Assembly (NCBI GenBank): GCA_963840335.1
Contig: CAWIYP010000017.1
Span: forward strand, 7,879-71,878
Reading direction: 5' to 3'
Origin: an uncultured Chloroflexia bacterium
Lineage (GTDB): Bacteria > Chloroflexota > Ktedonobacteria > Ktedonobacterales > JADMIN01
DNA length: 64,000 nucleotides
Shown: piece after piece, positions 1-64,000 of the stretch
Position numbering within the stretch: position 1 is the stretch's first letter
How the letters are laid out: every line of letters starts with the position of its first letter
The notes under the pieces: model-generated
Seen by the model: the letters and a program-made list of their open reading frames with translations, nothing else
Told to the model about the DNA's origin: nothing
Databases searched by the model: none
Made by a program: the position numbers and the translations under genes

Positions 1-1585
1 CTTCCACGTCACGCCGCCATCATCGCTCACCACCAGACGCCCTGGTGGAGGGGAGCCACTCGCCGCGAGCATGATCTGGCTGACGGCGCTATAGAGCCGT
101 GTCCCCTGCGTGATGATGGTAGGGGATGCGCTATACAACGGCAGACCGAAGCCCAGCAGACCAGGGGCGGGCAGCGACAGTTGCTGCCACGACGCGCCAC
201 CGTTGGCCGTCACGTACTGGAGCTGACAGACCCTCACGCTATTCTTTGGGCAGACGCTGTAGTTTGTGCCGTTGAGTTGAAGCGTCAGGATGAAGACCTG
301 TGGGTTTATCGGACTCTCCTGGCCGATAGCAAGGTTCACGCTATCAGGATAGGTCACGCCCGCGATCTGTGGCGGCGTCAGGTTTGTCCATGTCTGGCCC
401 CAATCGTCCGAGCGCTGTAGGACGAACTGTGGCGGCGAAGTCTTCGAGGTCTGCGCCGACAGAAGCGTTGTACTGCGTGCGCAGGATGGCTTGGCGCGAT
501 GCTCGCTACCTGGCTGAGTGAGGTCGCTTTCGTCCACGCCGCGCTGCCGATCAGTGGGGTGACAGTAGGCGTGACGGTTGGCGCCGAGTTGTTCGTGAGT
601 GGTTCAAGCTGCGCCCACTCGGCGACGAACGCCTGTGTCGTCTCGCCCGTCAGCCAGAGCCGCGTCTGCCCACCCGGCGCGGCCTGCGTGAAGGCGCTCG
701 CGTAGCTGGACAGTCCGTCGGGGTTTGCGACCTGGCTCCAGCCCGCCGCATCCGAAGGCTGGCGCTACATTCCAGGCGTCTACGGCGCCGTAGTTCTCGA
801 CCACGAGCGTCCCATCGGAGAGCGTGGTGAGCAGCGTCGGGCTTGGCGCATTTGTGTGCGGGGTGATGGCTGGCGCGCTCACGAAGCCGCCATTTTCGCC
901 ATTGCGGCTGCCCTGGATGTAGAGCTTGCCCGCCGCGTCGGCGGTTTCCAGATAGAGGATGGTCGAGTTGGTCGAGTTGTCCCATGCCGCGCGCATGTCC
1001 AGCAGCATCCGATTAGGCGGCGCGCCGATCTGTGTCCACGTCTGCCCGCTGTCCATGCTGCGCCAGAGCAGCAGCGGCGGCGCGGACGAGATGGGGCCAG
1101 TGGACGACTGGTTGAGCGGCTCCGTCGCGGCGAAAACCGCTTTGCCGCCCGGCGCCGCTGAGTAGGTGTAGACGCCCTGGCCCGCAGCCCGGAATGTCCC
1201 GTCAATCAGCTTCCAGGTGAAGCCGCCATCGTCGCTGGCGACCAGCCGCGCGGGTGGAGGCGCGGAGTTCGCGCCGAGCGCCAAGGCCGTTGTGATGACG
1301 CTGAAAAGTCGGTGTCCCTGCGCCTGAAGATTGCCCGCGACGGATGAGATAGTGTTGGTGCGAATGGCGGCGCCCGTCAGCAAGTTGGGCGCTGGGCAGG
1401 GATCAGCCTGCGCCAGGTCTGGCCGCCATTCGCGCTGACAAACTCGAACTCACAGTTCTCCGCGACACGCCCGTCGCGGCGCAGCCCCCGGTCGGTGTCC
1501 CCGCCCCGATGATGAGTAGACCACCTGCGGATTGATTGGACTGACAAAGCCTGATGACTGGCCCAATGATGTTCGGATAGGTCAC
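1..1585 (-). pseudogene. BNR/Asp-box repeat ectodomain. It continues the anti-sigma gene, is split over at least 5 frame segments, and runs off the window start.
   Basis: Minus-strand translation shows repeated S-x-D-x-G-x-T-W boxes: RSDDWGQTW (about 375-400), SMDSGQTW (in ORF 604..1383), SANGGQTWRRL (about 1410-1440) and TTDQGAHWT (about 1600). Each box is preceded by a TSKT(S/A)PP-like segment. The readable sense jumps between frames near 1590, 1480, 1385, 750 and 480. Frame 1..600 is open but unlisted because it has no stop inside the window. Confidence 0.6.
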
Positions 1586-2223
1586 GCCCGCGATGGCTGG
1601 CGGCTTGAGCTGATCGTCCAGTGCGCGCCTTGATCGGTTGTGCGGCGCATCGTGATGACAGGCGGCGCGGTCTTCGAGGTGGTGACGAGCGCGAACTGAT
1701 AGGCCACTCGCGGATTCGATGCCGCGATGACCACGCCGTTCCCGCCGTCGTAGGCGGTGACATCATGCCAGACGCCGTTGGGAACTGCCGTTGCGGTGGC
1801 CGCAGCCGTCGGTGTCGTGGTGGGCGAGGGACGCAGCGACGCCTGCCGCGCCAGCAGCGCCGCGAAGAGCGCGACGAGCAGCAGCGCGGCCACACCCGCG
1901 CCTACCCGCCCCCAGAGCGCGCGGTTGGAGAGCGACAGCCCGCCGGGCAGCGCCAGCCTCTGGCGCGGCGCGGCGATGCGGCGACGCATGGCAGGCCACG
2001 GGTCGGCGCTGGGGACGGGAATCATCTGTTGCTGGAGAGCGGCGCCGATGCGCTCGTAGTCGCGCATGCGCGACTGGCAGGCCTGGCAGCCCGGGACATG
2101 CCGCGCGAGCCACTGCGCCTGCGCGGGGAGTTGCAAGCCATCGCGCCAGGCGGAAAGCTCCTCCGGCGGGACATTCGCGGCGCAAACGAGGGTGGCGCCG
2201 CCGCGTCGCATCTCATCGCTCAT
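1582..2223 (-). CDS. Anti-sigma factor, zf-HC2 type: cytoplasmic N-terminus plus one TM helix. The ectodomain continues downstream in other frames.
   Basis: Internal start MSDEMRRGG at 2223. The ATG shares one base with the sigma-factor TGA (GACTGATGAGC). HC2 motif HVPGCQACQSRMRDYE; TM segment GAGVAALLLVALFAALLA; then a Thr/Pro/Ala linker. Confidence 0.75.
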   Translation of the reverse strand: MSDEMRRGGATLVCAANVPPEELSAWRDGLQLPAQAQWLARHVPGCQACQSRMRDYERIGAALQQQMIPVPSADPWPAMRRRIAAPRQRLALPGGLSLSNRALWGRVGAGVAALLLVALFAALLARQASLRPSPTTTPTAAATATAVPNGVWHDVTAYDGGNGVVIAASNPRVAYQFALVTTSKTAPPVITMRRTTDQGAHWTISSSRQPSRA

Positions 2224-2879
2224 CAGTCCGCCTCCCTCCGCAGATAGCGCCGCCGGAAGCCTTCGCGGCCCCGGAAGAGCGCCATCTTCACCGCATCGCG
2301 CGAGATGCCCAGCGTCTCGCCAATCTCCTCGCAACTGAAGCCGTAGACCTCGCGCAGGGTCAGTGCGGCGCGCTGGTTTGGCGGCAGTTCCAGCAGGGTG
2401 CGCTGCACCAGATCGCGCTCGGCCAGCCGCTGGGTGGGGTCGCTGTGCGCGGGCGTCTGCGCCTCGGTCAGCGCGTCGGCGGAGAGCGCGCCGCCCTGCT
2501 CGCGGCGGTGGGAGGTGCGCGCCAGATTCGTCGCCACGCGCAGCAGCCACGCGCGCGGGTTGTCATAGCCGCGCACCTGCTCGAAATGGCTCCACGCGCG
2601 CAGGAAAGTCTCCTGTGTCAGGTCGCGCGCGGTGTGCGCGTCGCCGCTGAGCCGCCAGAGGAAGGCATAGACAGCGCGCTCATGCTCGCGGAAGAACGCT
2701 TCGAATGCGGTGTCTGGCGCTCCACCCGGCGCGCTGTTCGCTCCCGGCGCGCGTGTCTCTGGCGACGTGTAGGGCTGCCCACGTCGCTGCTCGTCCGCCT
2801 GCCCGCGAGCGCGCGTTGCCAGCAGCGCGGGCCACACGCTACGCCACGCGCCCGAGTCCCAGCGCCTGCTGATCGCCAT
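2223..2879 (-). CDS. ECF (group 4, sigma-70 family) RNA polymerase sigma factor
   Basis: Region 2-like DLTQETFLRAWSHFEQVRGYDNPRAWLLRVATN and region 4 HTH ALTLREVYGFSCEEIGETLGISRDAVKMALFRGR. Translationally coupled to the anti-sigma gene. Confidence 0.85.
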   Translation of the reverse strand: MAISRRWDSGAWRSVWPALLATRARGQADEQRRGQPYTSPETRAPGANSAPGGAPDTAFEAFFREHERAVYAFLWRLSGDAHTARDLTQETFLRAWSHFEQVRGYDNPRAWLLRVATNLARTSHRREQGGALSADALTEAQTPAHSDPTQRLAERDLVQRTLLELPPNQRAALTLREVYGFSCEEIGETLGISRDAVKMALFRGREGFRRRYLRREAD

Positions 2880-3110
2880 CCGCGCACTCCATCCTCTTCG
2901 CAGTGGGGCGCGTGGCAGCCAGCGCCGCGCGCATCTACTCCATTACACTCAGATGATGGGTGGTTAGTAACGCTGGCTTGTCGATTTCGGTCGGGGAGAG
3001 CGCGCCACGCTCAAGAAAAAACTGGCGGGCCGCAGCCGTTACATATGAGAAATCGCTGAACTATACTGAAAGAGCCTACACTGATCGCTCTCTGTCCAGG
3101 AGTAGCCAGG

Positions 3111-4259
3111 ATGGAAGACCAACAAATGCGACGCCCGCGGCAGAGCTGGCGCTCACCGTTGAAGGCGCGAACGTGGCTTGCGCGGCCGTGGCTTGCGCGG
3201 CTCATCACGACGCTGGGCGTTATCCTCGTGACTGCCGGACTATATACGCCATTCATCGTCACCGACGTGTTCATCACAGGCCACCTTCCCACCCGAGACT
3301 CAGAGACCTGGGCGGTGGGAGGTGTGATGGGCCTGGTCGCGGCGCGCCTTCTCTCATGGCCCCCGCCACTTTCCCTGTGGCTCGGATTCGACGCGGCGCT
3401 CTCCGCTCTCATGCTGGGCGGGCTGGCGCTGCTGCCATTGCTCTGGCGGCCGCTCACCCGAAAGAGACTCGCGCTCGTCCGCTGGACCTATGCCGCATGG
3501 CTGGCGCTGCTCATGATCCTCGCGATTGCGGGTCTCGTCGCTCTGCGTCAGTCCGTACCGCTCGCCTTTTCGGGGCATTCGCAGTTCAACACCTATGGCT
3601 TCTTCCACGTCCTGCCTGGGGCGGTTGTCTTTCCGCTGGGCGCGTTCATCATTGTCGCCGCGCTCGTCCTCCTGTTCAGGGAGTCGGCGCCTGCGACTCT
3701 CCCAACGCCTGCGCCGCGCAGTGGCAGGCTGTGGGCGGCCACGCTCACGCTCACGGCGGGTGCGCTGGTCTGGGGCGTCGGCTTCTACCTCATGCCTCAG
3801 GCCATCACCACCACCTGCCCGCCAGTGACCTTCTCGTTCACGCAATTCGCGCACGGCTCCTGCGCCGGGATTGATTCCGATCAGGTGTTGCAATGGGCCT
3901 GGTACGCTGGACTCAATCCTGTCGCCTCTCTGCTCTATACCCTCGGCAGGAACTTTGAGCTATTGGTCGCGCTCGGCGTCATCACGGCGCTTGGCGGATG
4001 GACGCGGCTCCTCTCGGTCACGACGCTGGCCTGGCTGGCGGCGTGGCCCGCGCTGGCGTTCGGCGTCGCGCTCGTCGCCCTCCAGGGCGTGGGAGTCGTC
4101 GCGCGATACGGGTTTCAGCTTGCCGCTGAACCAGGCGGTAGCTGGCACGCGGCGCCTGGCATGGTCGTAACCTTCGCCGGAATCATCCTTGTCGCGCTAG
4201 GGCAGATTGGCCTGTGGCGCGAAATGGTGAAGCGAAAGCGCGCCGTGAGCGCAAAGTAG
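3111..4259 (+). CDS. Polytopic integral membrane protein, unknown function
   Basis: 382-aa ORF with many long hydrophobic stretches (LITTLGVILVTAGLY, AWLALLMILAIAGLVAL, LVALGVITALGGW and others). Divergent from the ECF sigma operon. No family recognised. Confidence 0.6.
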   Translation: MEDQQMRRPRQSWRSPLKARTWLARPWLARLITTLGVILVTAGLYTPFIVTDVFITGHLPTRDSETWAVGGVMGLVAARLLSWPPPLSLWLGFDAALSALMLGGLALLPLLWRPLTRKRLALVRWTYAAWLALLMILAIAGLVALRQSVPLAFSGHSQFNTYGFFHVLPGAVVFPLGAFIIVAALVLLFRESAPATLPTPAPRSGRLWAATLTLTAGALVWGVGFYLMPQAITTTCPPVTFSFTQFAHGSCAGIDSDQVLQWAWYAGLNPVASLLYTLGRNFELLVALGVITALGGWTRLLSVTTLAWLAAWPALAFGVALVALQGVGVVARYGFQLAAEPGGSWHAAPGMVVTFAGIILVALGQIGLWREMVKRKRAVSAK

Positions 4260-4272
4260 CAACAGCCAGACG

Positions 4273-6248
4273 TCACTTCACCGGCTCGCCCGCGTCGGCT
4301 GGGGGCGCGTGCAGGGTGCGCTCGCGCTCGTAGATGACCATGCCGGGGCCGCCGCCCTTCATATGGCGGACGTAGCGCGCCTCGGTGTAGTCCACCGCCA
4401 CGCTGCCCGCCTCGCGCAACTGGCTGTACCAGCCCGCCAGCGCCGCCGCCTCGCGCAGCGCCTCATCGGGCGCGGGCCGTCCCGCCACCTTCAGGATGAC
4501 GTGCGCGCCGGGAGCGCCGCGCGCGTGCAGCCAGAGGTCGTTTGGCGCCGCCTGATGGAAGGTCACTTCCTCGTTCTGGCGGCTGTTCTTGCCCACCAGC
4601 GCCAGCATCGTCGCCGCTCAGCCGCCGCCGCAGGGGCGCGCCACCCTCCGGCTTGCCGGGCTTGCTCTGGCCACCCTTCGCGCCTTTCGCGCCTGCCTTG
4701 CCGCCCGCTTTGCCCTTCTTGCCACCCTTGCGCTGCTCTTTCGCCAGCCGCCGCGCCTCGGCCCCGCCCTTGATGTAGCCCGCCTCAGCCACCTCCGCGC
4801 GCACATGCGAGACCTCGGCGGGCGTCTCGGCCAGCGCCAGATCGGTCAGCAGTTGCTCGACACGCGCCAGCTCCACGTCGTTCGTCTCGACCTGCTCTGG
4901 CAGCAGCTCCGCCGCGCGCTGGAGCTTGTGGTAGCGGGTATAGCGGCGGTTCGCGTTCTCCACAGCGGAGTACTGCGGATCGAGCGCGATGGTCAGCGTC
5001 GCGCCCTCCTCGCTGGCCCAGGCGTCGGGCAGCGTCGCCGACTTCGCGCCCGACGGGCACCTCCGCCTGGAAGGCCAGCAGCGTATCAGCCTCGCGCCGT
5101 AGCTGGGCCGCCTCGGCCTGCGCCGCCTGATCCTCCGCCAGCGCCTCCGCCTTGCGCTGGCAGCGGTCGCGCTGATGCTGGAGGATGCGCCGCAGATCGC
5201 CCTTCGCCTGCTCCAGCTCCACACGCCATTCCGCCCCGCTGAAGAGCAGATCGAGCGCGTCGTTGACGCTGGCGATGGGGCGCAGGGCATCCTCCGGCGG
5301 ATACTGGCGCGGCTCGTAGGCCGCCAGCGCGATGGGCCGCTCGGGCAGATCCGCGGTGGCGGGCGCGTAGACCAGCGTGGGGCGCCAGTCGCGCGTCGTG
5401 GCCAGCGTCGCCAGCGCTCGTGTCTCGCGCGCCAGCGCCTCCCAGACCTCCCACGGCGCGGCGGCGTCCACGGGCGCCTCGGCGTCACCCAGCGCGCGGG
5501 CGGCGACCTCGCGCCCCAGCTCCCGCCCGAAGCCAAAGACGCTCATGGCGAGCGTCACGGCGATGGTGGGCGGGGTCGCGCCGCCCCGCTTGCCGCGCTT
5601 GCCCTTCGCCGTGGGCTGGGCCGGCTCCGCCTGCGCCGCTGTGAAGGTCGCGAGCGCATCGAGCGCGGCCTCGCGCAGGTCGCTGGCCGTCACGTCGGCG
5701 CCGGGAAGCTGTGGCAGGGTCGCGCCTGCCAGCGTGCGGGTCTGCGGGGGTGGAGAATGGTACGGCGCATGCGGCAGAATGACGCGATACTGATTCGTCT
5801 CAGCGGTGGCCAGGCGGAGCGCGCCCAGAATCACCCGCTCGGCGTCGGTGAGGATGATATTGCTGAAGCGGCCCATCACCTCGGCGATCAGCCAGGTCGT
5901 CGCCGCGCCACTGGCCGCGTCTGGCCCCCGCGCGAAGCCTAGCTCGACGATGCGCTCCCAGGCGGGCTGGCGGGTCGCGACCAGACGCGCGCCCTCCAGA
6001 TGCTTGCGCAGCAGCATCACGAAAGGCGGTGGCTCGGTGGCGAGCTTGCGCGGTTTCGCGCTGGTCAGCCGCAGATGCGCGAGCTGCGGATGCGCCGAAA
6101 CGACGAGCCAGCGATTGCGCCCGCCGCCCCATAGCTGTAATGCGATAGAATGTGGTGTCGGCTGGATGACATCATCCACCCGGGCGCCGCGTAGCTCGCG
6201 CTCGAATTCATCGCTGAGCGCAGCCAGAGTAAGCGCGTCTATCTGCAT
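4273..6248 (-). CDS. rqcH: NFACT/FbpA-family ribosome quality control protein (RqcH-like), with 2 apparent 1-nt frameshifts
   Basis: N-terminal NFACT-N (MQIDALTLAAL..., MGRFSNIILTD), a coiled-coil middle part, and C-terminal NFACT-R/DUF814 (LALVGKNSRQNEEVTF...WLHARGAPGAHVIL). The sense frame switches near 5055 and 4612. Span length is 3n+2. Confidence 0.75.
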
Positions 6249-9141: not shown

Positions 9142-11739
9142 CTACGCCCAGCGAATGAGGCCAAGCTCGAAGGGAGAAGCCAGCCCGACATGATACGGTG
9201 TGATGCGCACACCGTAGACCACACTCCCCGTGTGGAAGCGATCCATCTCCGCGCTATAGCGCAGCGCGCCATCCACTGGCGCGCCCTCGCGGCGCATCTC
9301 GATCACCCGCTGCTCGGAGAGCGCGCCATTCTCGTCGCGCGCTGTTACCAGCTCCACGCGCACGTCGTCTGGCGTGAGGTCGCCCAGCCGCACGAGCGCC
9401 TCGACGCGCGCCGACTCACCCTCGGCGATCTGCTCATCGCTGGGGCCACTCGCCGTCAGGCTGATCTCGCCCCAGCGCTCGCGCACCCGCCGCTCCCAGG
9501 CTGTCAACTCGCGGGCCAGCGCGTAGTCGCGCGCATCCATCCGCTCGCCCGCGCGCACGGCTGGCATGTAGTACGACGTCACGTACTCTTTGACCATCCG
9601 GCTCATGCTGAACTGTGGCGCAACGGTGCGCATCGCCTCGCGCATCACCGCGAGCCAGCCGTGGGGCAATGCCGTCATCGCCGCGCTCGTAGTAGAGCGG
9701 GACAATCGCCTGCTCCAGTGTCTCATAGAGCGCAAGCGCATCCGCCGCGTCGCGCGTCTCGTCGTCCTGATACTCGCGCCGCTCGCCGATGGCCCAGCCA
9801 TTCTTGCCGTTGTAGCCTTCTTCCCACCAGCCATCGATGATGCTGCAGTTGGGCAGGCCGTTCAGGCTGGCTTTCTGGCCGCTGGTGCCGCTGGCCTCGT
9901 GCGGACGGATGGGCGTATTCAGCCAGACATCGCAGCCGCTCACCAGTCGCCGCGCCATATCGATGTCGTAGTCCTCCAGGAAGACGATCTTGCCCGCGAA
10001 TTCCGGCTGCTGGGTGAAGCCGTAGACCTTGCGGATCAGCTCCTGCCCGGGGCGATCGGCGGGGTGCGCCTTGCCCGCGAAGATGATCTGCACGGGGCGG
10101 TCGGGATGATTCAGCAGCCGCGCCAGTCGCTCCTCATCGCGGAAGAGCAGGGTCGCCCGCTTGTAGGTGGCGAAGCGCCGCGCGAAACCGAGCGTCAGCG
10201 CACTGCGGTTCAGCAGAGCCGCCCGACGCGCTGCACCGCCTGCGGGCCTTCGCCGTGGCGTGTGCGCTGGCGGGCGATGCGGCGGCGCGCGTAGGCGATC
10301 AGGTCGTCCTTCATCTGCTCATGCGCGCCCCAAAGCTCGCTGTCGGGAATCTCGCTCACACGCTCCCAGCGCGCCTGATTATCAATATCCCCGCTCCAGC
10401 CCGGCTCCAGATATTCATCCAGCAGCGTCGCCAGCTTCGGGTTCAGCCACGACTCGGTATGCACGCCGTTCGTCACATGGCCAATCGGCGCCTCGCTCGC
10501 CTCGACATCGGCCCAGAGCGAGCGCCACATCTCGCGCGAGACCTCGCCGTGGAGCCGACTGACCCCATTGCGCCGCGACGAGAGGTGGATGGCCAGCACG
10601 GTCATGCTGAAGCCCGCCCCCCAGCTCGCGTCCTGCCGCGCCAGCCGCATGAAAGCGTCGCGGTCGAGGCGCAACTGTGGCCAGAAATCAGCGAAGTAGC
10701 GGTCCATCAGATCGAAGGAGAAGACATCGTTGCCAGCGGCGACGGGGGTATGAGTGGTGAAGACGCTATTCGCGGCGGCGATCTGGCGGGCGACCTCGAA
10801 CTCGACATCCAGCCCGTTGACCAGCTCGCGGCAGCGCTCCAGGCCGAGGAAGGCGGCGTGGCCCTCGTTCATGTGCCAGATCTTCGCGTCAATGCCCAGC
10901 GCCCGCAGCGCCCGCACACCGCCGATGCCCAGCACGATCTCCTGCGAGATGCGCATCTCGTGGTCGCCGCCGTAGAGCCGCGCCGAGAGCGTGCGATCCG
11001 AGGGCGTGTTCTGCGGCACGTCGGTATCCATCAGGTAGAGGGGGATGCGCCCCACCTGGACATGCCAGACCTTCGCGTAGACCGTGCGCCCCGGCAGGTC
11101 AACGCTGATGCGCGCCTCGCGTCCCTGGGCGTCGCGGGCGGGTCGGGCGGGCGCCTGCGAAAACTCCAGCTTCTCGTAGATGGCCTCCTGCTGCCCATCG
11201 CGGTTGATGCGCTGGCGGAAGTAGCCCTGCGGATAGAGGAAGCCGACGCCGACGAAGGGCAGGCCGAGGTCGCTGGCCTCCTTGCAGTGGTCGCCGGAGA
11301 GAATGCCCAGGCCGCCAGAGTAGATCGGCAGCGACTCGTGCAGCCCGAACTCAGCGGAGAAGTAGGCGATAACGGAGTCGGCGTCTTTCGGGAATTCGCG
11401 GCTGAACCAGGTCGTCGCTGGCTTCATGTAGGCGTCGAACTCGGCCAGCACGGCGTCGTAGCGGGCCAGAAACTCGGCGTCCTCCGCGAGCGCGTTCAGG
11501 CGCTGTGGGTCGGCCCCCGCGAGCGTGGCGACGGCGTTATGCTCCGTGCGCTCCCACATCTGCGCGTTGACCTGGGCATAGAGCGCCTGCGCGCTTGGCG
11601 TCCACGACCACCAGAGGTTATACGCCAGTTCATAGAGCCGCTCGATACGCGGCGGAATCGTCGGAAAAACAGAGAGACGGCCTAATATCTTCACCCAGTC
11701 AAACTCCTGCTCATGTTCCCACTCACGCGGGGAGCGCAT
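9142..11739 (-). CDS. glgP: Alpha-glucan (glycogen/maltodextrin) phosphorylase, GT35 alpha-glucan family, with 2 apparent frameshifts
   Basis: YFSAEFGLHESLPIYSGGLGILSGDHCKEASDLGLPFVGVGFLYPQGYF, and EASGTSGQKASLNGLPNCSIIDGWW (pyridoxal-phosphate Lys region). Frame switches are near 10220 (1-nt deletion) and 9668 (1-nt insertion), net 3n. Confidence 0.85.
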
Positions 11740-11991
11740 GCTCTCGCACGCGAGACGTTGTGATTGTCGTGCGCGGCAGAGATGTAGCGCTTAGCTCGTT
11801 TCACGATACCACACGCTCTTGAGAGATACGTCGGCGGGGACGGCTGGGCGTGTGGGGGCGGGGCGGGGTGCCGCTCTCGGCATTGAAAAGGCCGGAGCAC
11901 GCGGATGCGGCCTGATGATGTTTTGGCAATAGGGCGAACACGTCGGCGCGGGTAGGAGGGGCGGGTAAACCCGCGGCTAAGGGTGTGCGCG

Positions 11992-12146
11992 CCACGAAGC
12001 CCGCCGACGCGGGCTGGGTCTCGGCGGAAGGGGACGCCGATAGGCAGACGCATCGTCTCACGTTGGCTGGTTCCTAGTCCGCGTCGGCGGACTTCGCGGC
12101 GGAACGCCCTCCAGGCGCGGCTTGAGCCGTCAGCCGCCGCGCGCCG
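11992..12146. repeat. Palindromic intergenic repeat element, copy C
   Basis: Arms CCACGAAGCCCGCCGACGCGGGC (11992-12014) and GTCCGCGTCGGCGGACTTCGCGG (12077-12099) are near-perfect inverted repeats. They are followed by CCAGGCGCGGCTTGAGCCGTCAGCC, which resembles the tail of copies A and B. Confidence 0.55.
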
Positions 12147-12282
12147 TGCTCGCGGTTATTGCTAAAACAGCATAATTCGCGCCGGAAGGGCCTTCCGGCG
12201 CTGCCGCACTCCCTAGCCGTGTGACGTCGCGCCATGGCTCAGTATTCGATTAACGCAGTACGTGACAGTAACCGCCAGCGCG

Positions 12283-12380
12283 CCTTCCCCTTCATGTGTG
12301 AATAGAATCGCTTGCGAGGGCGTCTACTTCCTGCCATACTAACGGCGACAGTCTGGGTTGTTGGGCAGGAGGGTAGCCGT
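12283..12380 (+). promoter_or_regulatory. Conserved 5' region (candidate promoter plus leader) of TIR-STAND paralog 1
   Basis: About 80 percent identical by eye to 60773-60868 upstream of paralog 2. Shared CTTCATGTGTGA(A/C)TAGAATCGCTTGCGA with a -10-like TAGAAT (12303-12308), and GTTGGGCAGGAGGG(T/A)AGCC with an AGGAGG RBS before the ATG. Confidence 0.4.
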
Positions 12381-15300
12381 CATGGCGACGAGTGATTCCC
12401 CCGCGAGCGCCACGGTTCGGGCGCGTCCGCGTGGTGCGAGTCTGTGGCGTGCGCTTGGTTGGATCGGTATCATTCTCTGGCTGGCGATGCTCGCGGTGAA
12501 TGCGGCGCCATACCTCAGCGGGCGTCCCTGGCCCGCGGCCAGCGATCTGCTCCCGCGCCTGCTCACGCCACCCGCCGCGCTGGGCCTGCCGCCCGATCTG
12601 GCCGCGCAGGCCATGCCGTTCATCACGGCGCTCGCGGTCTTCCTCCTCGTCCTCGTTGTCACGCTCACCATCTCGCCCTACCGCGCAGGAGGGCTGCCCA
12701 TCGCGCACCCGCGCCGCGCCCTCTGATCGCCAGAGACGCCCGCGCCGCGACTAACGTCCGCGCCGGACAGCGGGGCCAGCGCGCGCCCTCACCGCTCGCC
12801 AGCGCGCGCCAAAGAAAATCACGCCGCCCGCGCCAGCGACGGAGTCAGCCACCCGCGCGTCTTCATCAGCCACAGCAGCAAAGACGATGGCTTCGGGTTG
12901 TGGCTGGAGCAACGACTCAAGGAGGCGCTGGGCGACCCCGACGACGTGTTCTATGACCACGATGGCGGGCTGATCGGCGGCGATGAGTGGCTGAAGACGC
13001 TGCAATATGAGATTGGGCGGCGCGATGTCTTCGTGCTGATCCTCTCGCCGCAGGCCCTCGCCTCGGGCTGGGTCGAGCGCGAGGTGAGCTACGCCCTGCG
13101 CCAGGCGGTCTCCGTCGGCGGCAAGGTGATCGTCCCCGTGCTGCATGCGGACGTAGATGTGTGGCCCTTCCTCGCGGACTATCAGATGGTGGACTTCCGC
13201 GAGCCGGAGCCTTCGAGGCCGCGTTTGCCGATCTGCTGACCGCTGTGCGCCTGGGCCGCTCGCGCCTGGTGGAGCTGCGTGGGCTGCGGGGCGTGCGGCG
13301 TGGCCCGCCCTTCGACCTGGAGCGCCTGCCCCTGCCGGAGCGCTTCATCGGACGCGCTACCGACGATCGAGTGGGCGCTGGAGCGGCTCGCGCCTGACCT
13401 GAACCTGGACCGACGTCCCCGACTGGTGGGTGGGCATGTGGCGAGCGGGCTGGCCAGCATCGCCGCCGCCAACGGCCTGGCGGGCATCGGCAAGTGGGCG
13501 CTCGCGGGCGCACGTGGCGCGCATCCTCTACGCCACCAACCGCTATCCCGATGGCATCGCCGTCATCGCCTGCAATGGGCTGAGCGACCCGGTCGCCGTG
13601 CTGCGCGCCGTCGCTGGCCCGCTTCGACCCGGAAGGGAGCGCGCCGCAAGAAGAACACGGTCGAGGCGCTGAGCGAGGTGGCGAAGGGTGTCTTCGCGCA
13701 GGCTGCCCCACGCGCTGGTCGATGCTGGACAACGTCGAGCCGAGCCTACCAGCGGAACGGGTGACGAAGCCGCTGCGGGTCGCGGGGGCCGCGCTGCTGC
13801 TGACCTCACGCCAGCGCCTCCCTACCAATGCCGTCCCGCCGACGATAGCCACCAGCTCGATCTGCTCTCGCAGGACGAGGCCATCGCCGTCTTCATCGAG
13901 AACCGCGAGCGCGTGACGGCGCCCACCGAGGCCAGCGCCGCGCCTGCCGGGCAGGATGGCGCGGCGGTCAACGAGGCCGAACGCGCCGCCATCGCAGAGT
14001 ATCGTGGCGGCGCTGGGAAAGCCACACGTTGGCCGTGAAGCTGGCGGCGGCCCGCGCGCGTGGTCGCGACCTGGCCGCCCTCGCGCGCGACTACGCCGCG
14101 AACCCGCGCCTCGGCGTGAATTTGCGCGATGGACGGGAGGCGGTGGACGTGGTCATGTCATCTAGTGTGGCGGGACTGCCCGCCCCCGCGCGCCTGCTCT
14201 TCGCCGCGCTCGGCGCCTTCGCCAGCGACGAGATTGGTCGCCGGGCGCTGCTGAGCGTCGGGCGGACGATCTGGAGATCGCCGACCCCGAGGCCAGCCTC
14301 GACGCGATCCTCGATCTGCGCCTGGCTGACGCCTACCTCGCCCCCGACCTGCCCGCCGACGAACGCCGACAACGAGCGCCTGCGCCTGCACCCGCTGACC
14401 CGCGCCTATGCCCGCGACCTGCTCGACGCCGAGCGCGCCGTCGGCGATGAGCCCGCTCTGGCCGACGGCGCGCCGCGCGCAGGCCCAGCGCGCCGTCGAC
14501 CGCCTGGTACGCCAGCTACGCCAACAACGCCGCCACCCCCGACGCCGCGCGCACGCTCGACGAAGCGAACATCGGCGGCGCGCTGGCCTGGGCCGTCTCG
14601 GCGGCGAGGATGACCCCCTGCTCGCGGACCTCTGCAACGGCATGGCCGCCTACTGGAACCTGCGCGGCAGAACCGACGACCGCAAGCGCTACCTCCCGCT
14701 GGCGGTGGCGGCGGCCCAGCGCGTGGCGGAGGCGACAGGCACGCGCGACGACCGCCTGCGAGCGGACGCCTGGAGGGGTATCACTGCGACCTGCTGCTCC
14801 TCCTTGGCGATGTCGCAGCCGCACGCGCCGGCTACGAGCGCTAGGCTCGCAGTCATGCAAGCCGTCGGCGACCAGCGGGAGGAGGGCGTCGCGCTGAGCA
14901 AGCTGGGCGATCTGGCGCTGCGCGAGGGCGATGTCGCCGCCGCCGCGCCGCCTACGAGCGCGTCCTCGCCATCATGCGCGCCGTCGGCGACCAGCGGGCG
15001 GAGGGCGTCGCGCTGAGCAAGCTGGGCGATCTGGCGCTGCGCGAAGGCGATGTCGCCGCCGCACGCGCCGCCTACGAGCGCGTCCTCGCCAGCATGCGAG
15101 CCGTCGGCGACCAGCGCAGGAGGGCGTCGCGCTGAGCAAGCTTGCAGATGTTTCTGAGCGCATGGGTGATATTGATGAACGCCGAGTCATTCTATCGACA
15201 GACTCTGTACTATTGTAAGGCGAATCGCCAGCCCGCCAGATCTTGCCGATGTACTCTCACTCGTGGGCGCGTTCCTGCTGCGGCATAGGCGCGGCGACGA

Positions 15301-15423
15301 CGAGGGGCGCGTGATGCTAGCGGAGGCGGCGGCGATCTACACGCGGCTGGGGATGGCGGCGATGGCAGGGGAGGCGGATGGCGGCGGGGAGGATGTGGAC
15401 GGCGGGGAGGCGGCCAGCGATTG
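12381..15423 (+). pseudogene. 2TM-TIR-NB-ARC(STAND)-TPR protein, paralog 1, heavily disrupted
   Basis: N-terminal 2-TM module (ALGWIGIILWLAMLAVNAAPYL; AMPFITALAVFLLVLVVTLTI). In-frame TGA at 12724-12726. TIR (VFISHSSKDDGFG...ILSPQALASGWVEREV). P-loop remnant GLAGIGKWAL about 13480-13505. 40-aa TPR-like repeats (VGDQREEGVALSKLGDLALREGDVAAA) at 14.8-15.15 kb. C-terminal end AIYTRLGMAA...ASD*. The sense jumps frame at least 10 times. Confidence 0.75.
14800..15150 (+). repeat. Tandem repeats of about 120 nt encoding TPR-like units inside paralog 1
   Basis: Units starting at 14861, 14980 and 15100 (GCCGTCGGCGACCAGCG...) are nearly identical. Two carry 1-nt deletions relative to their neighbours. 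Confidence 0.7.
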
Positions 15424-57306: not shown

Positions 57307-58150
57307 ATGACAATTCACTATCGCAGTGAGACTGAGATCGAGAGTATCCGCCGGGCTGGCCAGGTGGTGATGGAGATTCTGGCGATCTTGCGCGCGGCGA
57401 CGAAGCCGGGCGTCACCACCGGCGAGCTAGACGCCCTCGCCGCCAGTGAGCTTGCCCGGCGCGGCGCGACCTCCAACTTCAAGGGCTATTCACCCGCCAA
57501 GGGTGTTCCGCCGTTCTCAGGCGTCATCTGCGCCTCGGTCAACGAGGAAGTGGTGCATGGCGTCCCCGGCAAGCGCGTCCTGAAGGAAGGCGACATCATC
57601 GCCATTGACTTCGGCGCCATCGTGGACGGCTGGCATGGCGACTCGGCCATCACCGTTCCGGTGGGCAAGATTTCGGCGACGGCGCAGCGGCTGCTGGACG
57701 TGACGCAGGAAGCGTTGCGCCGGGGCATCGCCGCCGCCCGCGCTGGCTCGCGCGTCTTCGACATCACCGCCGCCGTGCAGTCCTACGTCGAGGGCGAAGG
57801 CTTCTCGCTGGTGGAGCATTACGGCGGGCATGGCATCGGGCGCGAGCTGCACGAAGACCCGTTCATCCCGAACGCGAAGGAGCAGGGCATCCCCAATCCG
57901 CTCCTGCGGCCAGGGATGGTCGTCTGCATCGAGCCGATGGTCAGCGTCGGGACGCCACGCACCCGCACCCTGAGCGACAAGTGGACCGTCTCTACCGCCG
58001 ACCACAGCCTGGCGGCGCACTTCGAGCATACCATCGCCATCACGAGCGGGCGATCCGCTGGTGCTGACGAGCCTGGCGGGCGCGGGTTGGCGGGCGCTAG
58101 GCCGCAGTCGGTCTGTTGGGCTGGTGAACGGGTTACGGCTGCTCATGTAG
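57307..58150 (+). CDS. map: Type I methionine aminopeptidase, with 1 apparent frameshift near the 3' end
   Basis: VVHGVPG..DIIAIDFGAIVDGWHGDSA..HYGGHGIG..CIEPM..HFEHTIAIT. The expected end DPLVLTSLAG...LRLLM* is reached by dropping 1 nt near 58045. Span length is 3n+1. Confidence 0.92.
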
Positions 58151-58937
58151 GGATGGTCAGGCTATGGCGACCCAGGGGTGCGCCGAGAAAGAGAGGATGA
58201 CAGCATGTGGCGGCGTAGAACGTCACGGCGATTCACGTCATCCGCGTCGTGCGGTCGTAGCCAGTACGCTGCTTGCTCCTGTTGCTCGTGTTCGAGATTG
58301 GTATCCGCTGCATTCCGCCCAACGGTGTGACGTATACCACGGACGATATCGGCTTCGGGTCGTGACGCTACTCGCGTGAGTTCAGACGCGATGCGAAGAC
58401 GGTAGGCGCCAATGGAATCGCTAAACCAACACCGGCCGATACGTTCAGCTAGCGGGGTTTCTAGGTCGAAGATGTAGCTGCGCCTGCCATGTATGACCTA
58501 TCGAACCCAACACTTCAACTTACACGTTTACGCTCTGATGGGATTCCGATTGAATCGTTCAGCGGGAGGAAGCGGAACATTTGCGGGTACCAATACGTAC
58601 AGAGCGCCGGAGGCTATGCCCAACCTTTTATCCTCTACGCAGTATTGGATCTCGGTCGAATCAGACAACGCTGGCAATTTCAGCTCACTAAATGAGCGGA
58701 AAGCGCCCAAAAGACACGGCATCTTCGCAGGCTCTTTTGCCTGCTGAGCGTCATCTGGCGGCATCTGTTGATACGCCAATCCAGATCGCTGAGCCCGGCC
58801 AGGAATCTTCGGGGTGGTTGCGCCGCTGGTTGTGAGCGCATACTATACGCAATACTGATGATGTCGCGTCCAGGCCGCCCAGCCGAGTGGGCGCGGCCAG
58901 CGAGTCCGGCTACATCGCGAGAGGAGCAGCAGCAGCT

Positions 58938-60722: not shown

Positions 60723-60772
60723 GGCGCGCTCCCTCGATTAACACGTGACTCGCCATTAACTGCCAGCACGCC

Positions 60773-60868
60773 TCCCCTTCATGTGTGACTAGAATCGCTT
60801 GCGATAGAGACTACTTCCTGTCATACTGACGGCGTGACGATGGGCTGTTGGGCAGGAGGGAAGCCGCT
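60773..60868 (+). promoter_or_regulatory. Conserved 5' region (candidate promoter plus leader) of TIR-STAND paralog 2
   Basis: Counterpart of 12283-12380. TAGAAT at 60790-60795. AGGAGGGAAGCC before ATG 60869. Confidence 0.4.
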
Positions 60869-63800
60869 ATGGCGACAGGTAATTCTCCAGCGAGCGCCGC
60901 TGTTCAGGCGCGTCCACGCGGCGTGAGTGTAGGGCATGGGCTGGGCTGGCTGGGCGTTGCCGCGTGGCTGGCGATGATCGCGGTGAATGCGGCGCCGTAC
61001 CTCAGCGGGCGTCCGTGGCCCACGGCCAGTGATCTGCCGCAGCGCCTGCTCACGCCGCCCGCCATGCTGGGCCTGACGCCAGCGATGGCCGCGCAGGCCA
61101 TGCCGTTCGTCACCGCGCTCGTGGCCCTCCTCATCGTCATCCTCGCCGCGCTCACCATCTCGCCCACCGCGCCAGCGGCCACACCACCCAGGCCGCATGT
61201 CGCGCTGCCCACGCTACCTGTCGCGCCGCTCACGCCACCCGCGCCGCCTCTGGTGCGCGTGCGCGTGCGCAAGACCTCGCCCGCGCCGCCCCAAAAAGAC
61301 ATTACCCGCGTAGATACCGACATCCTGCCGGTGATCCGTGTGACGCCGCCACTCGCGGAGCCAGCGCATGTTTACGTTCCGCTGCCAGAGCCGCAGATCC
61401 CCAGTCCGCCCAGCGGTGAGACGCCCGCCGAGGCCGCGCCCGCGCCGCAGCGGGAACTACCGGCGCCTCCCGCCAACCCGCACCCGCTCACCGACGCCGC
61501 CGTGCCAGCGCCACCGCTCGACGTTACAACCAAACTCGACCCTACAACCAGGCTCGACCCTACAACCAAGCTCGATGCGACCACCAAGCTCGATGCGACC
61601 ACCAAGCTCGCGCCAGCGTCGCCAACCAGCGCCGCCACTGCGGCCATGTCTGGCGGCAGAAGCGACGCCCACATAGCGCACTTCACCCCCTGGGTCTTCA
61701 TCAGCCACAGCAGCCAGGATGATGACTTTGGCAAGCGGCTGAATGCTGACCTGCGCGCTGCGCTCGCGCCCGACGACGCCGGGCGGGTCTGGTATGACAG
61801 CGCGCCAGAGCGCGGCGAAGAAGACGCGGAGGGCGCCGAGAGCATGGACGAGAGCGCCCAGCCCGGCGGCCTCACGGGCGGCATGAACTTCCCGCGCGAG
61901 ATCGTGGAGCAGATCGCGGCGCGCAATGTGGCTATCGTGATTCTCTCGCCAGCGGCTGCGCGCTCGCGCTGGGTGCGCTACGAGATCGATCTGGCGATCA
62001 ACCGCTACAACGGGCCAGAACGTTTCGCCATCTATCCAGTGGTCTATCGCAACTGCGCGCTGCCGCATGCGCTGAGCATCTTCCAGGCGCTCGACTTCCA
62101 GGGCGCCGACGCTGACCCCGATGCCTACCAGCGCCAACTCAACGAACTGGTGACGCTGATCCGTGAGGGGCGCGTGAATCTCAGTGAGTCGGCGCCGCCC
62201 TTTGAGCTGGGTCTGCTGCCGGAGCCGCAACACCTGATTGGCCGCGATGTAGATCTGGGCTGGGCGCTCGACCGCCTGCGCGCCCGCGAGACGACCGCCG
62301 TGACCGCCATCGGAGGCATGGGGGGCATCGGCAAGAGCGCGCTCGCCGCCGTCGCCATTCGCCGCCTGCGCCAGGAGCGGGTATTCCCCGATGGCATCGT
62401 GGTCGTAAGCTGTGAAGACAAAAAGGACCCCGCCGAGGTGCTGCGGCAGGCGCTCACGCCCTTCACTCCTGGTCGGCGTACGCCTGAGGCCAGCGACCTG
62501 CCGGGCCTCGCCGCCGTGGCGCAGAAGCTGCTGGGCGGCAAGCGCACGCTCATCGCGCTGGACAATATCGAGCCGGACTGGCCCATCGAGCAGGTGACCG
62601 CGCCGCTGGCCGCCGCTGACGCCACGCTGCTGCTGACCGCGCGCCAGATGCTCCCGCTCGCCGCTGTCCCGCTGGATGGTGTGCGCCGCCTCGATCTGCT
62701 CTCGCCCGCGGACGCGCTGCTGCTCTTCGCCCAGAGCTACGGGCGCGCCAACGCCGACACCCTGACCGCCGCAGAGACTGCGAGCGCCACACGTATCGTC
62801 ACCCTGCTCGACCGCCATACCCTCGCCGTCCGCCTCGCGGGCGCCTATGCCGCTGAGATGCAGCGTCCCCTGGCGCGCGTGGCCGAGGAAATCGCCAGCG
62901 ATGTGCTGCGCATCCCGGAGGGCGAGACGCCGCGCAAGGTGGAGGCCGTGCTGGCGCGCAGCGTGGACGCGCTCCCGCCCGACGGGCAGCGGCTCTTCGT
63001 GGCGCTGGCCGCCATCGCCACCGGCGAGTTCGGGCGCAAGGCCGCGCTGGCCCTGGCGCGCGGCCTCGGGCTGGCCGACCCGGAGGCGACAGTGGAGCTG
63101 CTCGTGCGCCGCGCCCTGCTCGACGCCAGCGTGGACACCAGCCTGCCCGCCGACGCCGACGCCGAGCGCCTGCGTCTGCATCCGCTCTTCCAGGCCGAGG
63201 CCGCGCAACGCTTCGCCGCGTGGTCCGCCAACGACCGCGCCGACGCCCTGCGCGCGATGGCGACCTGGTACGCCCGCTACGCCGCAACGCCACACCCGAC
63301 GACTCACTTCTCCCTGATGAAGCGAACATCGGCGGCGCGCTGGCCTGGGCCGAGGCGGCGAAGGATGATCCTCTGCTCGCGCGCCTCTGCAACGGCATGG
63401 CCGCCTATTGGAGGATCCGTGGCAGAACCGACGACCGCAAACACTACCTGCCGCTGGCGGTGGCGGCGGCCCAGCGCGTGGCGGAAGCGACGGGCACGCG
63501 CGACGACCGCCTGCAAGCGGCGCGGCTAGAAGAATACTATGCTGATCTTCAGCTTATGCTTGGAAATGTCGCCGCCGCACGCGCCGCCTACGAGCGCTTC
63601 CTCGCCATCATGCAAGCCGTCGGCGACCAGCAGCAGGAGGGCGTCGCGCTGGGCCTGCTGGGCGATCTGGCGCTGCGCGAAGGCGATGTCGCCGCCGCAC
63701 GCGCCGCCTACGAGCGCGTCCTCGCCAGCATGCACGCCGTCGGCGACCAGCGCGGGGAGGGCGTGGCGCTCTATAAGCTCGCGCTACTTCTCGAATCGCA

Positions 63801-64000
63801 GGGCGAACTGGATGAGGCCGAGGCGTACCATCGGCAATCGCTGGCGATCAGCAGGCGCGTGCAGCATCCACAGGATGAGGCGGATTCGCTGTTGGAATTA
63901 GGGCAGTTCCTCCTGCGGCATGGGCGCGGCGGGGATGAGGGACGCGCGATGCTGGCGGAGGCGGCGGCGATCTACGAGCGGCTGGGGATGGCGGAGGAGG
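60869..64000 (+). CDS. 2TM-(Pro-rich linker)-TIR-NB-ARC(STAND)-TPR protein, paralog 2, with one apparent 1-nt deletion. Continues past the window end.
   Basis: TM1 LGWLGVAAWLAMIAVNAAPYL, TM2 AMPFVTALVALLIVILAALTI. TIR VFISHSSQDDDFG...VILSPAAARSRWVRYEI. P-loop GGMGGIGKSALA (about 62312-62338). Walker B LIALDNIE. After about 63285 the sense continues in another frame (DEANIGGALAWAEAAKDDPLLARLCNGMAAYW..., then 40-aa TPR-like repeats), open to 64000. Confidence 0.85.
61526..61615 (+). repeat. 18-nt x 5 tandem repeat encoding TTKLD(P/A) in the paralog 2 linker
   Basis: ACAACCAAACTCGACCCT / ACAACCAGGCTCGACCCT / ACAACCAAGCTCGATGCG / ACCACCAAGCTCGATGCG / ACCACCAAGCTCGCGCCA. Confidence 0.85.

Follow-up and report, generated by a model that had tools for sequence, protein, structure and literature searches.

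Proteins that join TIR, NB-ARC and TPR domains in one polypeptide have long been known from multicellular bacteria (Leipe, Koonin & Aravind 2004; PMC7159879; 10.1101/2020.01.06.895854). Such TIR-AP-ATPase-TPR proteins are a recognised component of the conflict systems of these organisms, and their genes occur beside vWA-MoxR systems (Kaur et al. 2020, PMC7159879). In E. coli, TIR fused to a STAND/ATPase-TPR core acts in antiphage defence (TIR-II, PMC11350192), and some other STAND and TIR systems also contain transmembrane (TM) segments (10.1101/2022.07.19.500537, PMC13581612). Among bacteria, the relatives of plant TIR-NLRs (NLR, nucleotide-binding leucine-rich repeat receptor) are the TIR-STAND-TPR receptors, and the logic of their activation is actively researched. 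Here, we describe a gene of this group located on the plus strand at the end (60869-64000) of a 64,000-nt stretch of contig CAWIYP010000017.1. This whole stretch is referred to as the window, and all positions count from its base 1. Judged by its sequence, the locus is a real gene of an uncultured Ktedonobacteria-type bacterium, with a membrane-tethered, "NLR-like" TIR-NB-ARC-TPR protein as its predicted product. From its N-terminus, this protein consists of two hydrophobic helices, a disordered linker rich in Pro, Ala and Thr, the TIR and NB-ARC domains, and about four TPR units of 40 residues.

The order of TIR, NB-ARC and TPR is the same as in the TIR-AP-ATPase-TPR proteins of multicellular bacteria, and so is the niche, namely filamentous Chloroflexota, Actinobacteria and Cyanobacteria. 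The focal protein differs from them by the addition of an N-terminal two-helix module and a long disordered linker. The MoxR-vWA association known for that group (PMC7159879) is shared by two loci with homologs of our gene, whereas the copy in the window has no vWA-MoxR neighbour. The single-protein effector-NTPase-TPR design is also shared with Avs proteins carrying TIR effectors and with TIR-II of E. coli (PMC11350192, PMC13581612). By analogy, the same logic would be expected, i.e. ligand-induced oligomerisation that activates the N-terminal effector, with TIR consuming NAD. In contrast to Avs proteins, however, the NTPase is of the NB-ARC/AfsR type and does not belong to the Avs1-5 clade, the protein is probably membrane-tethered, no PADLOC model for Avs matches it, and it does not reside in a defence-island context.

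With plant TIR-NLRs (RPP1, ROQ1, RUN1, and flax L6), the protein shares TIR, NB-ARC and the S-x-W-x-x-x-E motif. Its profile matches the structures of ZAR1, NRC4 and MLA13, and its TIR model matches RUN1. Unlike the plant receptors, it has a sensor made of TPR and not of leucine-rich repeats and no C-JID, and EDS1-type downstream signalling is absent in bacteria. Flax L6 is held on the endomembrane by an N-terminal signal anchor; the focal protein has a two-helix hairpin in place of a single anchor. The closest solved core, composed of a nucleotide-binding oligomerisation domain (NOD), an arm and TPR, is that of Streptomyces AfsR (PDB 8k60, 8jke; E 2.5e-38). Unlike the focal protein, AfsR starts with a SARP DNA-binding domain, activates transcription as a soluble protein and lacks both TIR and a membrane segment. 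Precedents for placing a P-loop switch NTPase at the membrane also exist among defence proteins. KAP NTPases have TM segments inserted in the NTPase. Further examples are bNACHT proteins with TM segments (10.1101/2022.07.19.500537), which are C-terminal and not N-terminal as in our protein, and Tmn (PMC13001434); none of these three groups shares the RYPR/W/N/L.LP hairpin module described below.

Gene structure and domain content

The reading frame opens with an ATG at 60869, which is preceded by the Shine-Dalgarno sequence GGAGGG at 60856-60861. Open reading frames (ORFs), their translation and alignment with homologs divide the coding sequence (CDS) into two parts. The first part (60869..63285; residues 1-805) includes the two-helix module, the linker, TIR and NB-ARC. 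Its frame stays open until approximately 63285, and reading then shifts to the +2/-1 frame. The second part (63286..64000; residues 806-1043) includes the arm and the TPR array and extends to the window end. The joined product is at least 1043 amino acids long. Homologs run about 14 residues past the last codon of the window ('...AQRLGCG'); the gene is therefore cut by the window edge just ahead of its stop codon. All elements listed in an initial annotation of this locus, made from the sequence without database searches, are present in the sequence.

The joined protein aligns with its homologs without a gap across the frame join ('WYARYANATPDDSLLPDEANI' vs 'WYGDYTNTAPDLALTPDEANI'). In the full-length AlphaFold2 (AF2) model, a single continuous helix (residues 787-807; predicted local distance difference test score, pLDDT, 76-79) spans this position. 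The break, located at 63283..63286 (tacgcc-GC-aacgcc), is therefore a 2-base insertion or a 1-base deletion.

The TIR domain (61694..62134; residues 276-422) was recognised by Pfam TIR_2 (PF13676) with 54.1 bits (cut-off 28) and, over a partial stretch, by the ThsB_TIR profile (25.1; cut-off 21.2). It displays the beta-A motif VFISHSS (residues 276-282) and the motif SRWVRYEI (residues 366-373), which includes Glu372 (nt 61982-61984). The AF2 model of residues 268-445 has a pLDDT of 83.6 and a predicted template modelling score (pTM) of 0.80. All hits among the top 50 listed in a Foldseek comparison with PDB were TIR domains (E 1e-5 to ~1e-3, probability 1.00); these include MAL, TRR-2, MyD88, SPARTA TIR-APAZ, RUN1, AbTir, and SARM1. 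The catalytic Glu of TIR domains stands at position W+4 (AbTIR E208, SARM1 E642, RUN1 E100), and SARM1 (WVHKE642) and plant TIRs have the W-x-x-x-E spacing found in the focal protein. Ser366, Trp368, Val369 and Glu372 are invariant in an 18-sequence alignment of the family TIR. In the profile alignment, Glu372 falls on the Glu of 'DWTNYEL' in the NAD(+) hydrolase AbTIR, on that of 'KEWPQKEL' in PdTIR, and on the corresponding Glu of the SPARTA TIR. By profile, modelled fold and position of this Glu, the domain is predicted to be of the NADase-competent type, which agrees with the initial proposal of a TIR domain with a catalytic-type Glu.

Profiles were needed to obtain matches in PDB, since a phmmer search with the single sequence of TIR + NB-ARC gave none. 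When the TIR domain alone was used as the query, a word-indexed homolog search returned only 2 matches, as the query is too short or too divergent for the index. The family TIR profile also matches (E 3.6e-8) the N-terminal TIR of an 824-residue 'Tetratricopeptide repeat protein' (PDB 9m0n / 9umd), for which no paper was found.

The NB-ARC NTPase (62270..62962; residues 468-698) scored 41.0 bits against Pfam (cut-off 23.5). The following motifs were identified: the P-loop GGMGGIGKS (residues 482-490; 62312-62338); the Walker B LIALDNIE (residues 561-568; 62549-62572); the sensor-I LLLTARQ (62627-62647); HTLAVRLAG (62816-62842); and, beyond the Pfam match, the MHD-like LHPL (63176-63187). Walker A conforms to GxxxxGK[ST], with Gly486, Gly488, Lys489 and Ser490 invariant in the homolog alignment; the sensor-I Arg592 is also invariant. 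In Walker B, Asp565 is present and the second acidic position is occupied by Asn566. This D-N pair is invariant in six close homologs and, as far as sequence can tell, would be compatible with a slow-hydrolysing switch. AfsR-type sequences have a Walker B of the same 'LDN' type. His771 of LHPL is a candidate for the MHD-type His, an equivalence judged from motif order only. The best match of the family NOD profile in PDB was AfsR, followed by ZAR1, NRC4, NRC3 and APAF-1; MLA13 was matched as well. We assign the NOD module, on sequence grounds, to the AP-ATPase/NB-ARC clade of STAND NTPases.

The putative TPR sensor array (63388..63999; residues ~840-1043) consists of about four 40-residue units and scored 58.6 bits against Pfam TPR_12 (cut-off 30.1). 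An in-frame tandem repeat (120 nt x2) at 63566-63806 encodes 40-residue TPR units, and the TPR helix pairs have pLDDT >90 in the AF2 model. Thus, the STAND NTPase with its P-loop and Walker B and the C-terminal 40-residue repeats, both named in the initial annotation, were confirmed, and TIR_2, NB-ARC and TPR profiles all match the joined translation above the Pfam cut-offs.

The linker (61166..61678; residues 100-270) is composed of 23% Pro, 16% Ala and 13% Thr, and the AF2 model is disordered over residues 94-272 (pLDDT <50). A Pro-rich linker of about 200 residues had been proposed initially; it is present, with a length of approximately 170 residues. Among homologs, the linker length varies from ~25 to 175 residues. 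An 18-nt in-frame tandem repeat (x5.3) at 61516-61610 lies within the linker and encodes TTKLDP hexapeptide units. This repeat and that in the TPR region (63566-63806) are potential sites of length variation.

The N-terminal two-helix module

The two hydrophobic helices and the conserved loop between them, which had been noted at the N-terminus, are borne out by our analysis. TM helix 1 (60929..60994; residues 21-42) has a 19-residue Kyte-Doolittle mean of 1.63, which is marginal, and TM helix 2 (61097..61165; residues 77-99) has a strong value of 2.78. The corresponding helices of the full-length AF2 model span residues 19-45 and 71-96. The inter-helix loop (60995..61096; residues 43-76) carries the motif 'LLTPP..LGL' and is predicted to be extracellular by its low Lys + Arg density in the family. 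Its sequence YLSGRPWP...LGL is kept in a paralog located in the same window and in the relative P0003.

Members of the module family have in common an R-Y-P-R box ahead of helix 1, a Trp that is nearly invariant, an Asn towards the end of helix 1, and 'L.LP' in the loop. In the focal protein, the box is reduced to RPRG, while Trp27, Asn40 and the 'L.LP' loop align with the family. A hidden Markov model (HMM) built from TIR-less members only gave the focal N-terminus 8.2 bits, which is inside the decoy range; several TIR-bearing N-termini scored above the decoys. After a second iteration, the focal N-terminus reached 22.5 bits, as compared to 6.0 bits for the best reversed or shuffled decoy.

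Charged residues are distributed unevenly over the module. Across 37 members, the mean number of Lys + Arg per 15 residues is 3.2 before helix 1 and 3.1 after helix 2; the loop, which averages 34 residues (about 21-47), contains 1.9. Thus, the density on both flanks is approximately four times that in the loop. By the positive-inside rule, this pattern fits an N-in/C-in topology with the TIR-STAND part in the cytoplasm. The cytoplasmic, membrane-tethered orientation proposed initially for the focal protein is therefore consistent with the pattern of the whole module family.

The relatives of the protein were surveyed by a HMMER scan of 1.84 billion cluster representatives (50% identity) with TIR + NB-ARC, which yielded 3607 relatives at E <1e-3 and 229 at E <1e-30. 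The N-termini of the 149 listed representatives containing NB-ARC were then tallied. The two-helix module was found in 48 of these, 12 with TIR and 36 without. In the latter, a charged/coiled segment is all that separates the hairpin from NB-ARC-TPR, and no further effector can be recognised. In another 28 representatives, several of which are truncated gene calls, TIR is present but no hairpin could be detected; 54 have other N-termini, with HTH_3 in all three examined; and 19 are fragments with <60 residues ahead of NB-ARC. The membrane-tethered arrangement, which had been regarded as unusual for a STAND sensor, is thus a family trait, and the earlier wording was too strong. Close homologs (58-78% identity) originate from Ktedonobacterales and Chloroflexia metagenome-assembled genomes (MAGs) and from soil metagenomes, and the named members of the clade are uncultured Ktedonobacterales. 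A scan of metagenome loci revealed distant relatives only (25-40% identity). Two metagenomic relatives show further combinations of the module: P0006 (1351 residues) has it together with a KAP-family P-loop NTPase and NB-ARC-TPR, and P0070 (1887 residues) has it followed by two TIR-NB-ARC units.

Pfam contains no model for the two-helix module, and no Pfam domain was detected in the first 150 residues of five TIR-less proteins that carry it. A limited literature search did not reveal this conserved N-terminal hairpin on NB-ARC-TPR proteins. In a word-indexed, database-wide search with the module profile, only the fragment from the window's own paralog was matched, as the query is too short or too divergent for the index. 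While the domains of the focal protein are known, the conserved two-helix module appears to be undescribed; it is borne by a sizeable clade of proteins, with or without TIR. The Bell domain was considered as the identity of this N-terminus and rejected. It is a five-helix bundle with one N-terminal hydrophobic helix and usually forms a separate protein with an amyloid motif (Dyrka et al. 2020, 10.1101/2020.01.06.895854), whereas our protein has two hydrophobic helices and a disordered linker, with no helical bundle.

Possible mode of action, genomic context and alternative readings

The reading we favour, with a probability of about 0.55, is that of a single-polypeptide STAND (AP-ATPase/NB-ARC) switch, which is held at the cytoplasmic membrane face by the two-helix hairpin and acts as a ligand-triggered, oligomerising NADase sensor. 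The conserved hairpin (N-in, C-in) would hold the protein at the membrane, with linker, TIR, NB-ARC and TPR in the cytoplasm. The TPR array would bind a protein ligand, either foreign, such as one from a phage, or a self-derived danger or developmental signal. Binding would lift the autoinhibition of NB-ARC and permit nucleotide exchange followed by oligomerisation. The TIR domains gathered in this way could form composite active sites around Glu372 and cleave NAD+. NAD+ depletion or ADP-ribose-derived products would then arrest growth or kill the cell or filament compartment. With the protein presumably tethered to the membrane, its oligomerisation would occur in two dimensions at the membrane, and the hairpins would be clustered as well. 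Past the domain assignments, each step of this scheme is modelled on plant TIR-NLRs, Avs proteins and TIR effectors. The coupling of envelope or entry events to NAD depletion, put forward in the initial annotation, is speculative.

A number of observations weigh against this reading. In the TIR domain, a 24-residue acidic, AF2-disordered insert (residues 311-334; nt 61799-61870) stands directly behind beta-B, where the BB-loop would be expected; the length of this insert differs among homologs. The Walker B motif reads D-N, not D-D/E, and the TPR array is short, with about 4 units as compared to ~13 in the relative P0002. The closest solved NOD is that of a transcription regulator, AfsR. Sister proteins carry HTH_3 where the focal protein has TIR, i.e. 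the clade is not exclusively immune. The focal reading frame contains one break, and the paralog has decayed. The neighbours of the gene in the window are housekeeping genes: an AMP-binding ligase gene, map, secY, and the ribosomal/rpoBC cluster are located upstream. A search with PADLOC-DB 2.0 gave no match to Avs or any other STAND defence model; matches were limited to a TPR model (E 5e-8) and, weakly, ThsB-like models (E 1e-3 or worse). Finally, the contexts of homologs differ from locus to locus (an ABC transporter in L001, CO-dehydrogenase genes in L007, sugar genes, a MoxR-vWA pair) and are mostly metabolic.

No conserved partner gene was found among the homolog loci, and no defence-island signal except, in part, at L005. 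At L006, the neighbouring gene encodes a 1041-residue protein without annotation. L004 and L005 are orthologous loci, in which a divergent pair of genes, one for a MoxR-type AAA ATPase and the other for a CoxE-type vWA protein, adjoins the TIR-STAND homolog (L004 6831-9577; L005 7270-9757; 83-86% identical between loci). At L005, GmrSD and a TCAD9/VMAP-C protein are encoded as well, at a distance of 8-10 kb. The MoxR-vWA pair may belong to a vWA-MoxR conflict system, or the two may be no more than coxD/E-like genes. As an operon partner of the focal gene the pair was rejected, as no tblastn match was obtained in the window and it was not seen in L001, L006 or L007. With regard to Thoeris, no ThsA-type effector gene is present upstream in the window, the downstream side of the gene being beyond its edge, and homolog loci share no conserved partner. 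Taken together, the lack of an Avs match, the housekeeping neighbours, the mixed homolog contexts, the AfsR-like NOD and the HTH-bearing sisters do not support the immune-sensor role named in the initial annotation; an immune role is something we infer only.

Since many members of the clade have the hairpin as their sole N-terminal module, this module, instead of being a passive anchor, may itself serve for output or sensing, with TIR as a second, added output. NB-ARC oligomerisation would then bundle the hairpins into a membrane-perturbing assembly similar to a coiled-coil (CC)-NLR resistosome or to the TM effectors of CBASS, Thoeris and Avs. The 36 of 149 representatives in which two helices precede NB-ARC-TPR with no other recognisable effector, the absence of Pfam domains from the first 150 residues of five of the TIR-less members, and features conserved beyond hydrophobicity (the R-Y-P-R box, Trp27, the Asn of helix 1, and the 'L.LP' loop) all agree with this idea, and the literature names TM effectors for Avs, Thoeris and TIR systems (PMC13581612, 10.64898/2025.12.03.692087, PMC11350192). 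We nevertheless consider it unlikely: it is not obvious how a hairpin inserted constitutively could be switched, and the 170-residue disordered linker of the focal protein weakens mechanical coupling to the oligomerising core. Equally doubtful is its more specific form, in which the RYPR-W-N-'L.LP' hairpin would be an unrecognised membrane output/sensor module driven by ligand-induced NB-ARC oligomerisation into a membrane-perturbing or ion-conducting ring, so that TIR-bearing members would be dual-output receptors, acting by membrane damage as well as by destruction of NAD+. Also improbable, in our estimate, is a non-immune function, namely that of a membrane-localised signal-transduction STAND regulator in a filamentous, developmentally complex bacterium. 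The TIR would then make a signalling nucleotide or act as an interaction scaffold for development, stress or phage-unrelated programmed cell death. The AfsR-like NOD-TPR core would be in line with such a role, as would the best NCBIfam matches (AfsR- and HaaT-type regulators, far under the cut-offs), the HTH_3 N-termini within the same NB-ARC clade, the housekeeping or metabolic contexts, and the concentration of the family in Ktedonobacterales MAGs. The catalytic Glu and the TIR core, however, are strictly conserved, as in NADase effectors; moreover, N-terminal modules are swapped freely and copies decay often, and conflict-type evolution fits this better than a fixed regulatory role.

The copy in the window might also be a pseudogene, i.e. 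a recently inactivated member of a fast-turnover family that is inactive in this organism. We regard this as possible, at well below even odds. In addition to the one break in the focal CDS, the paralog in the same window is interrupted by an in-frame TGA (12724) and switches frame about 12 times (4.0 per kb). Three of the homologs are frame-disrupted, often within the linker (L004 ~9400-13100; L006 ~4050-4552; L007 ~220-3700), with the two-helix module in another frame than the called TIR-NB-ARC; those in L001, L003 and L005 are intact. The disruption of L004, L006 and L007 could reflect recurrent family decay or assembly error in GC- and Pro-rich sequence; most neighbouring genes at these loci are intact. 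As judged by contig names, however, the intact homologs come from short-read-like and the disrupted ones from long-read-like assemblies, which points to technical error. Frame breaks also affect ordinary genes of the window. The gene for alpha-glucan phosphorylase (DUF3417 + Phosphorylase; 9142-11739, minus strand) is split into three ORFs in different frames, with Pfam profile positions 219-411 and 488-579 falling in different ORFs. The map gene, encoding methionine aminopeptidase, seems to change frame near 58043, which results in an odd C-terminal tail; rpoB, rpoC, fusA, and tuf are intact. The focal gene, with one switch (0.32 per kb), is not above this background, and the 3.1 kb contain no stop codons or other lesions elsewhere, with all catalytic motifs intact. 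The single break reported in the initial annotation is real in the sequence as given, yet it cannot be called biological because ordinary genes of the window are frameshifted too.

The distinction between tether and output device bears on the significance of the module. As a mere tether, it would show that a membrane surface can serve to organise the oligomerisation of STAND proteins; as an output device, it would parallel, in bacteria, the resistosome channels. For the present, these proteins are of limited practical use, as the organisms are uncultured and the copy in the window may be broken.

The paralog and other features of the window

The paralog (12382..15380, plus strand) was traced by tblastn segments in changing frames and has the same architecture, i.e. 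two-helix module, TIR, NB-ARC, and TPR. It is most likely a true pseudogene. At the DNA level, it is 81% identical to the focal gene in the 135 nt upstream and in the first 300 nt of the CDS, and 77-80% identical at the TPR end. The TIR shows only about 30% protein identity to the focal one, and NB-ARC is matched in short fragments; both are of a different type, similar to P0005 and L003. This mosaic pattern of identity suggests an exchange of modules or gene conversion between the two genes. The upstream region shared by them (60734..60868, plus strand; 81% nucleotide identity to 12246-12381) is a putative promoter and 5' untranslated region. A sigma-70 promoter in this region was considered and is unsupported, as a strict consensus scan found no site.

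No support was obtained for an origin of the region from a prophage or a plasmid. The ribosomal/rpoBC cluster lies in the same window, and a search of plasmid proteins gave a single weak actinobacterial match. A scan of the window for Rfam families and tRNAs returned none, including the segment at 58000-58935. In this segment, map is followed by about 0.9 kb of lower-GC, seemingly non-coding sequence in the place where infA, rpmJ, and rpsM are usually located.

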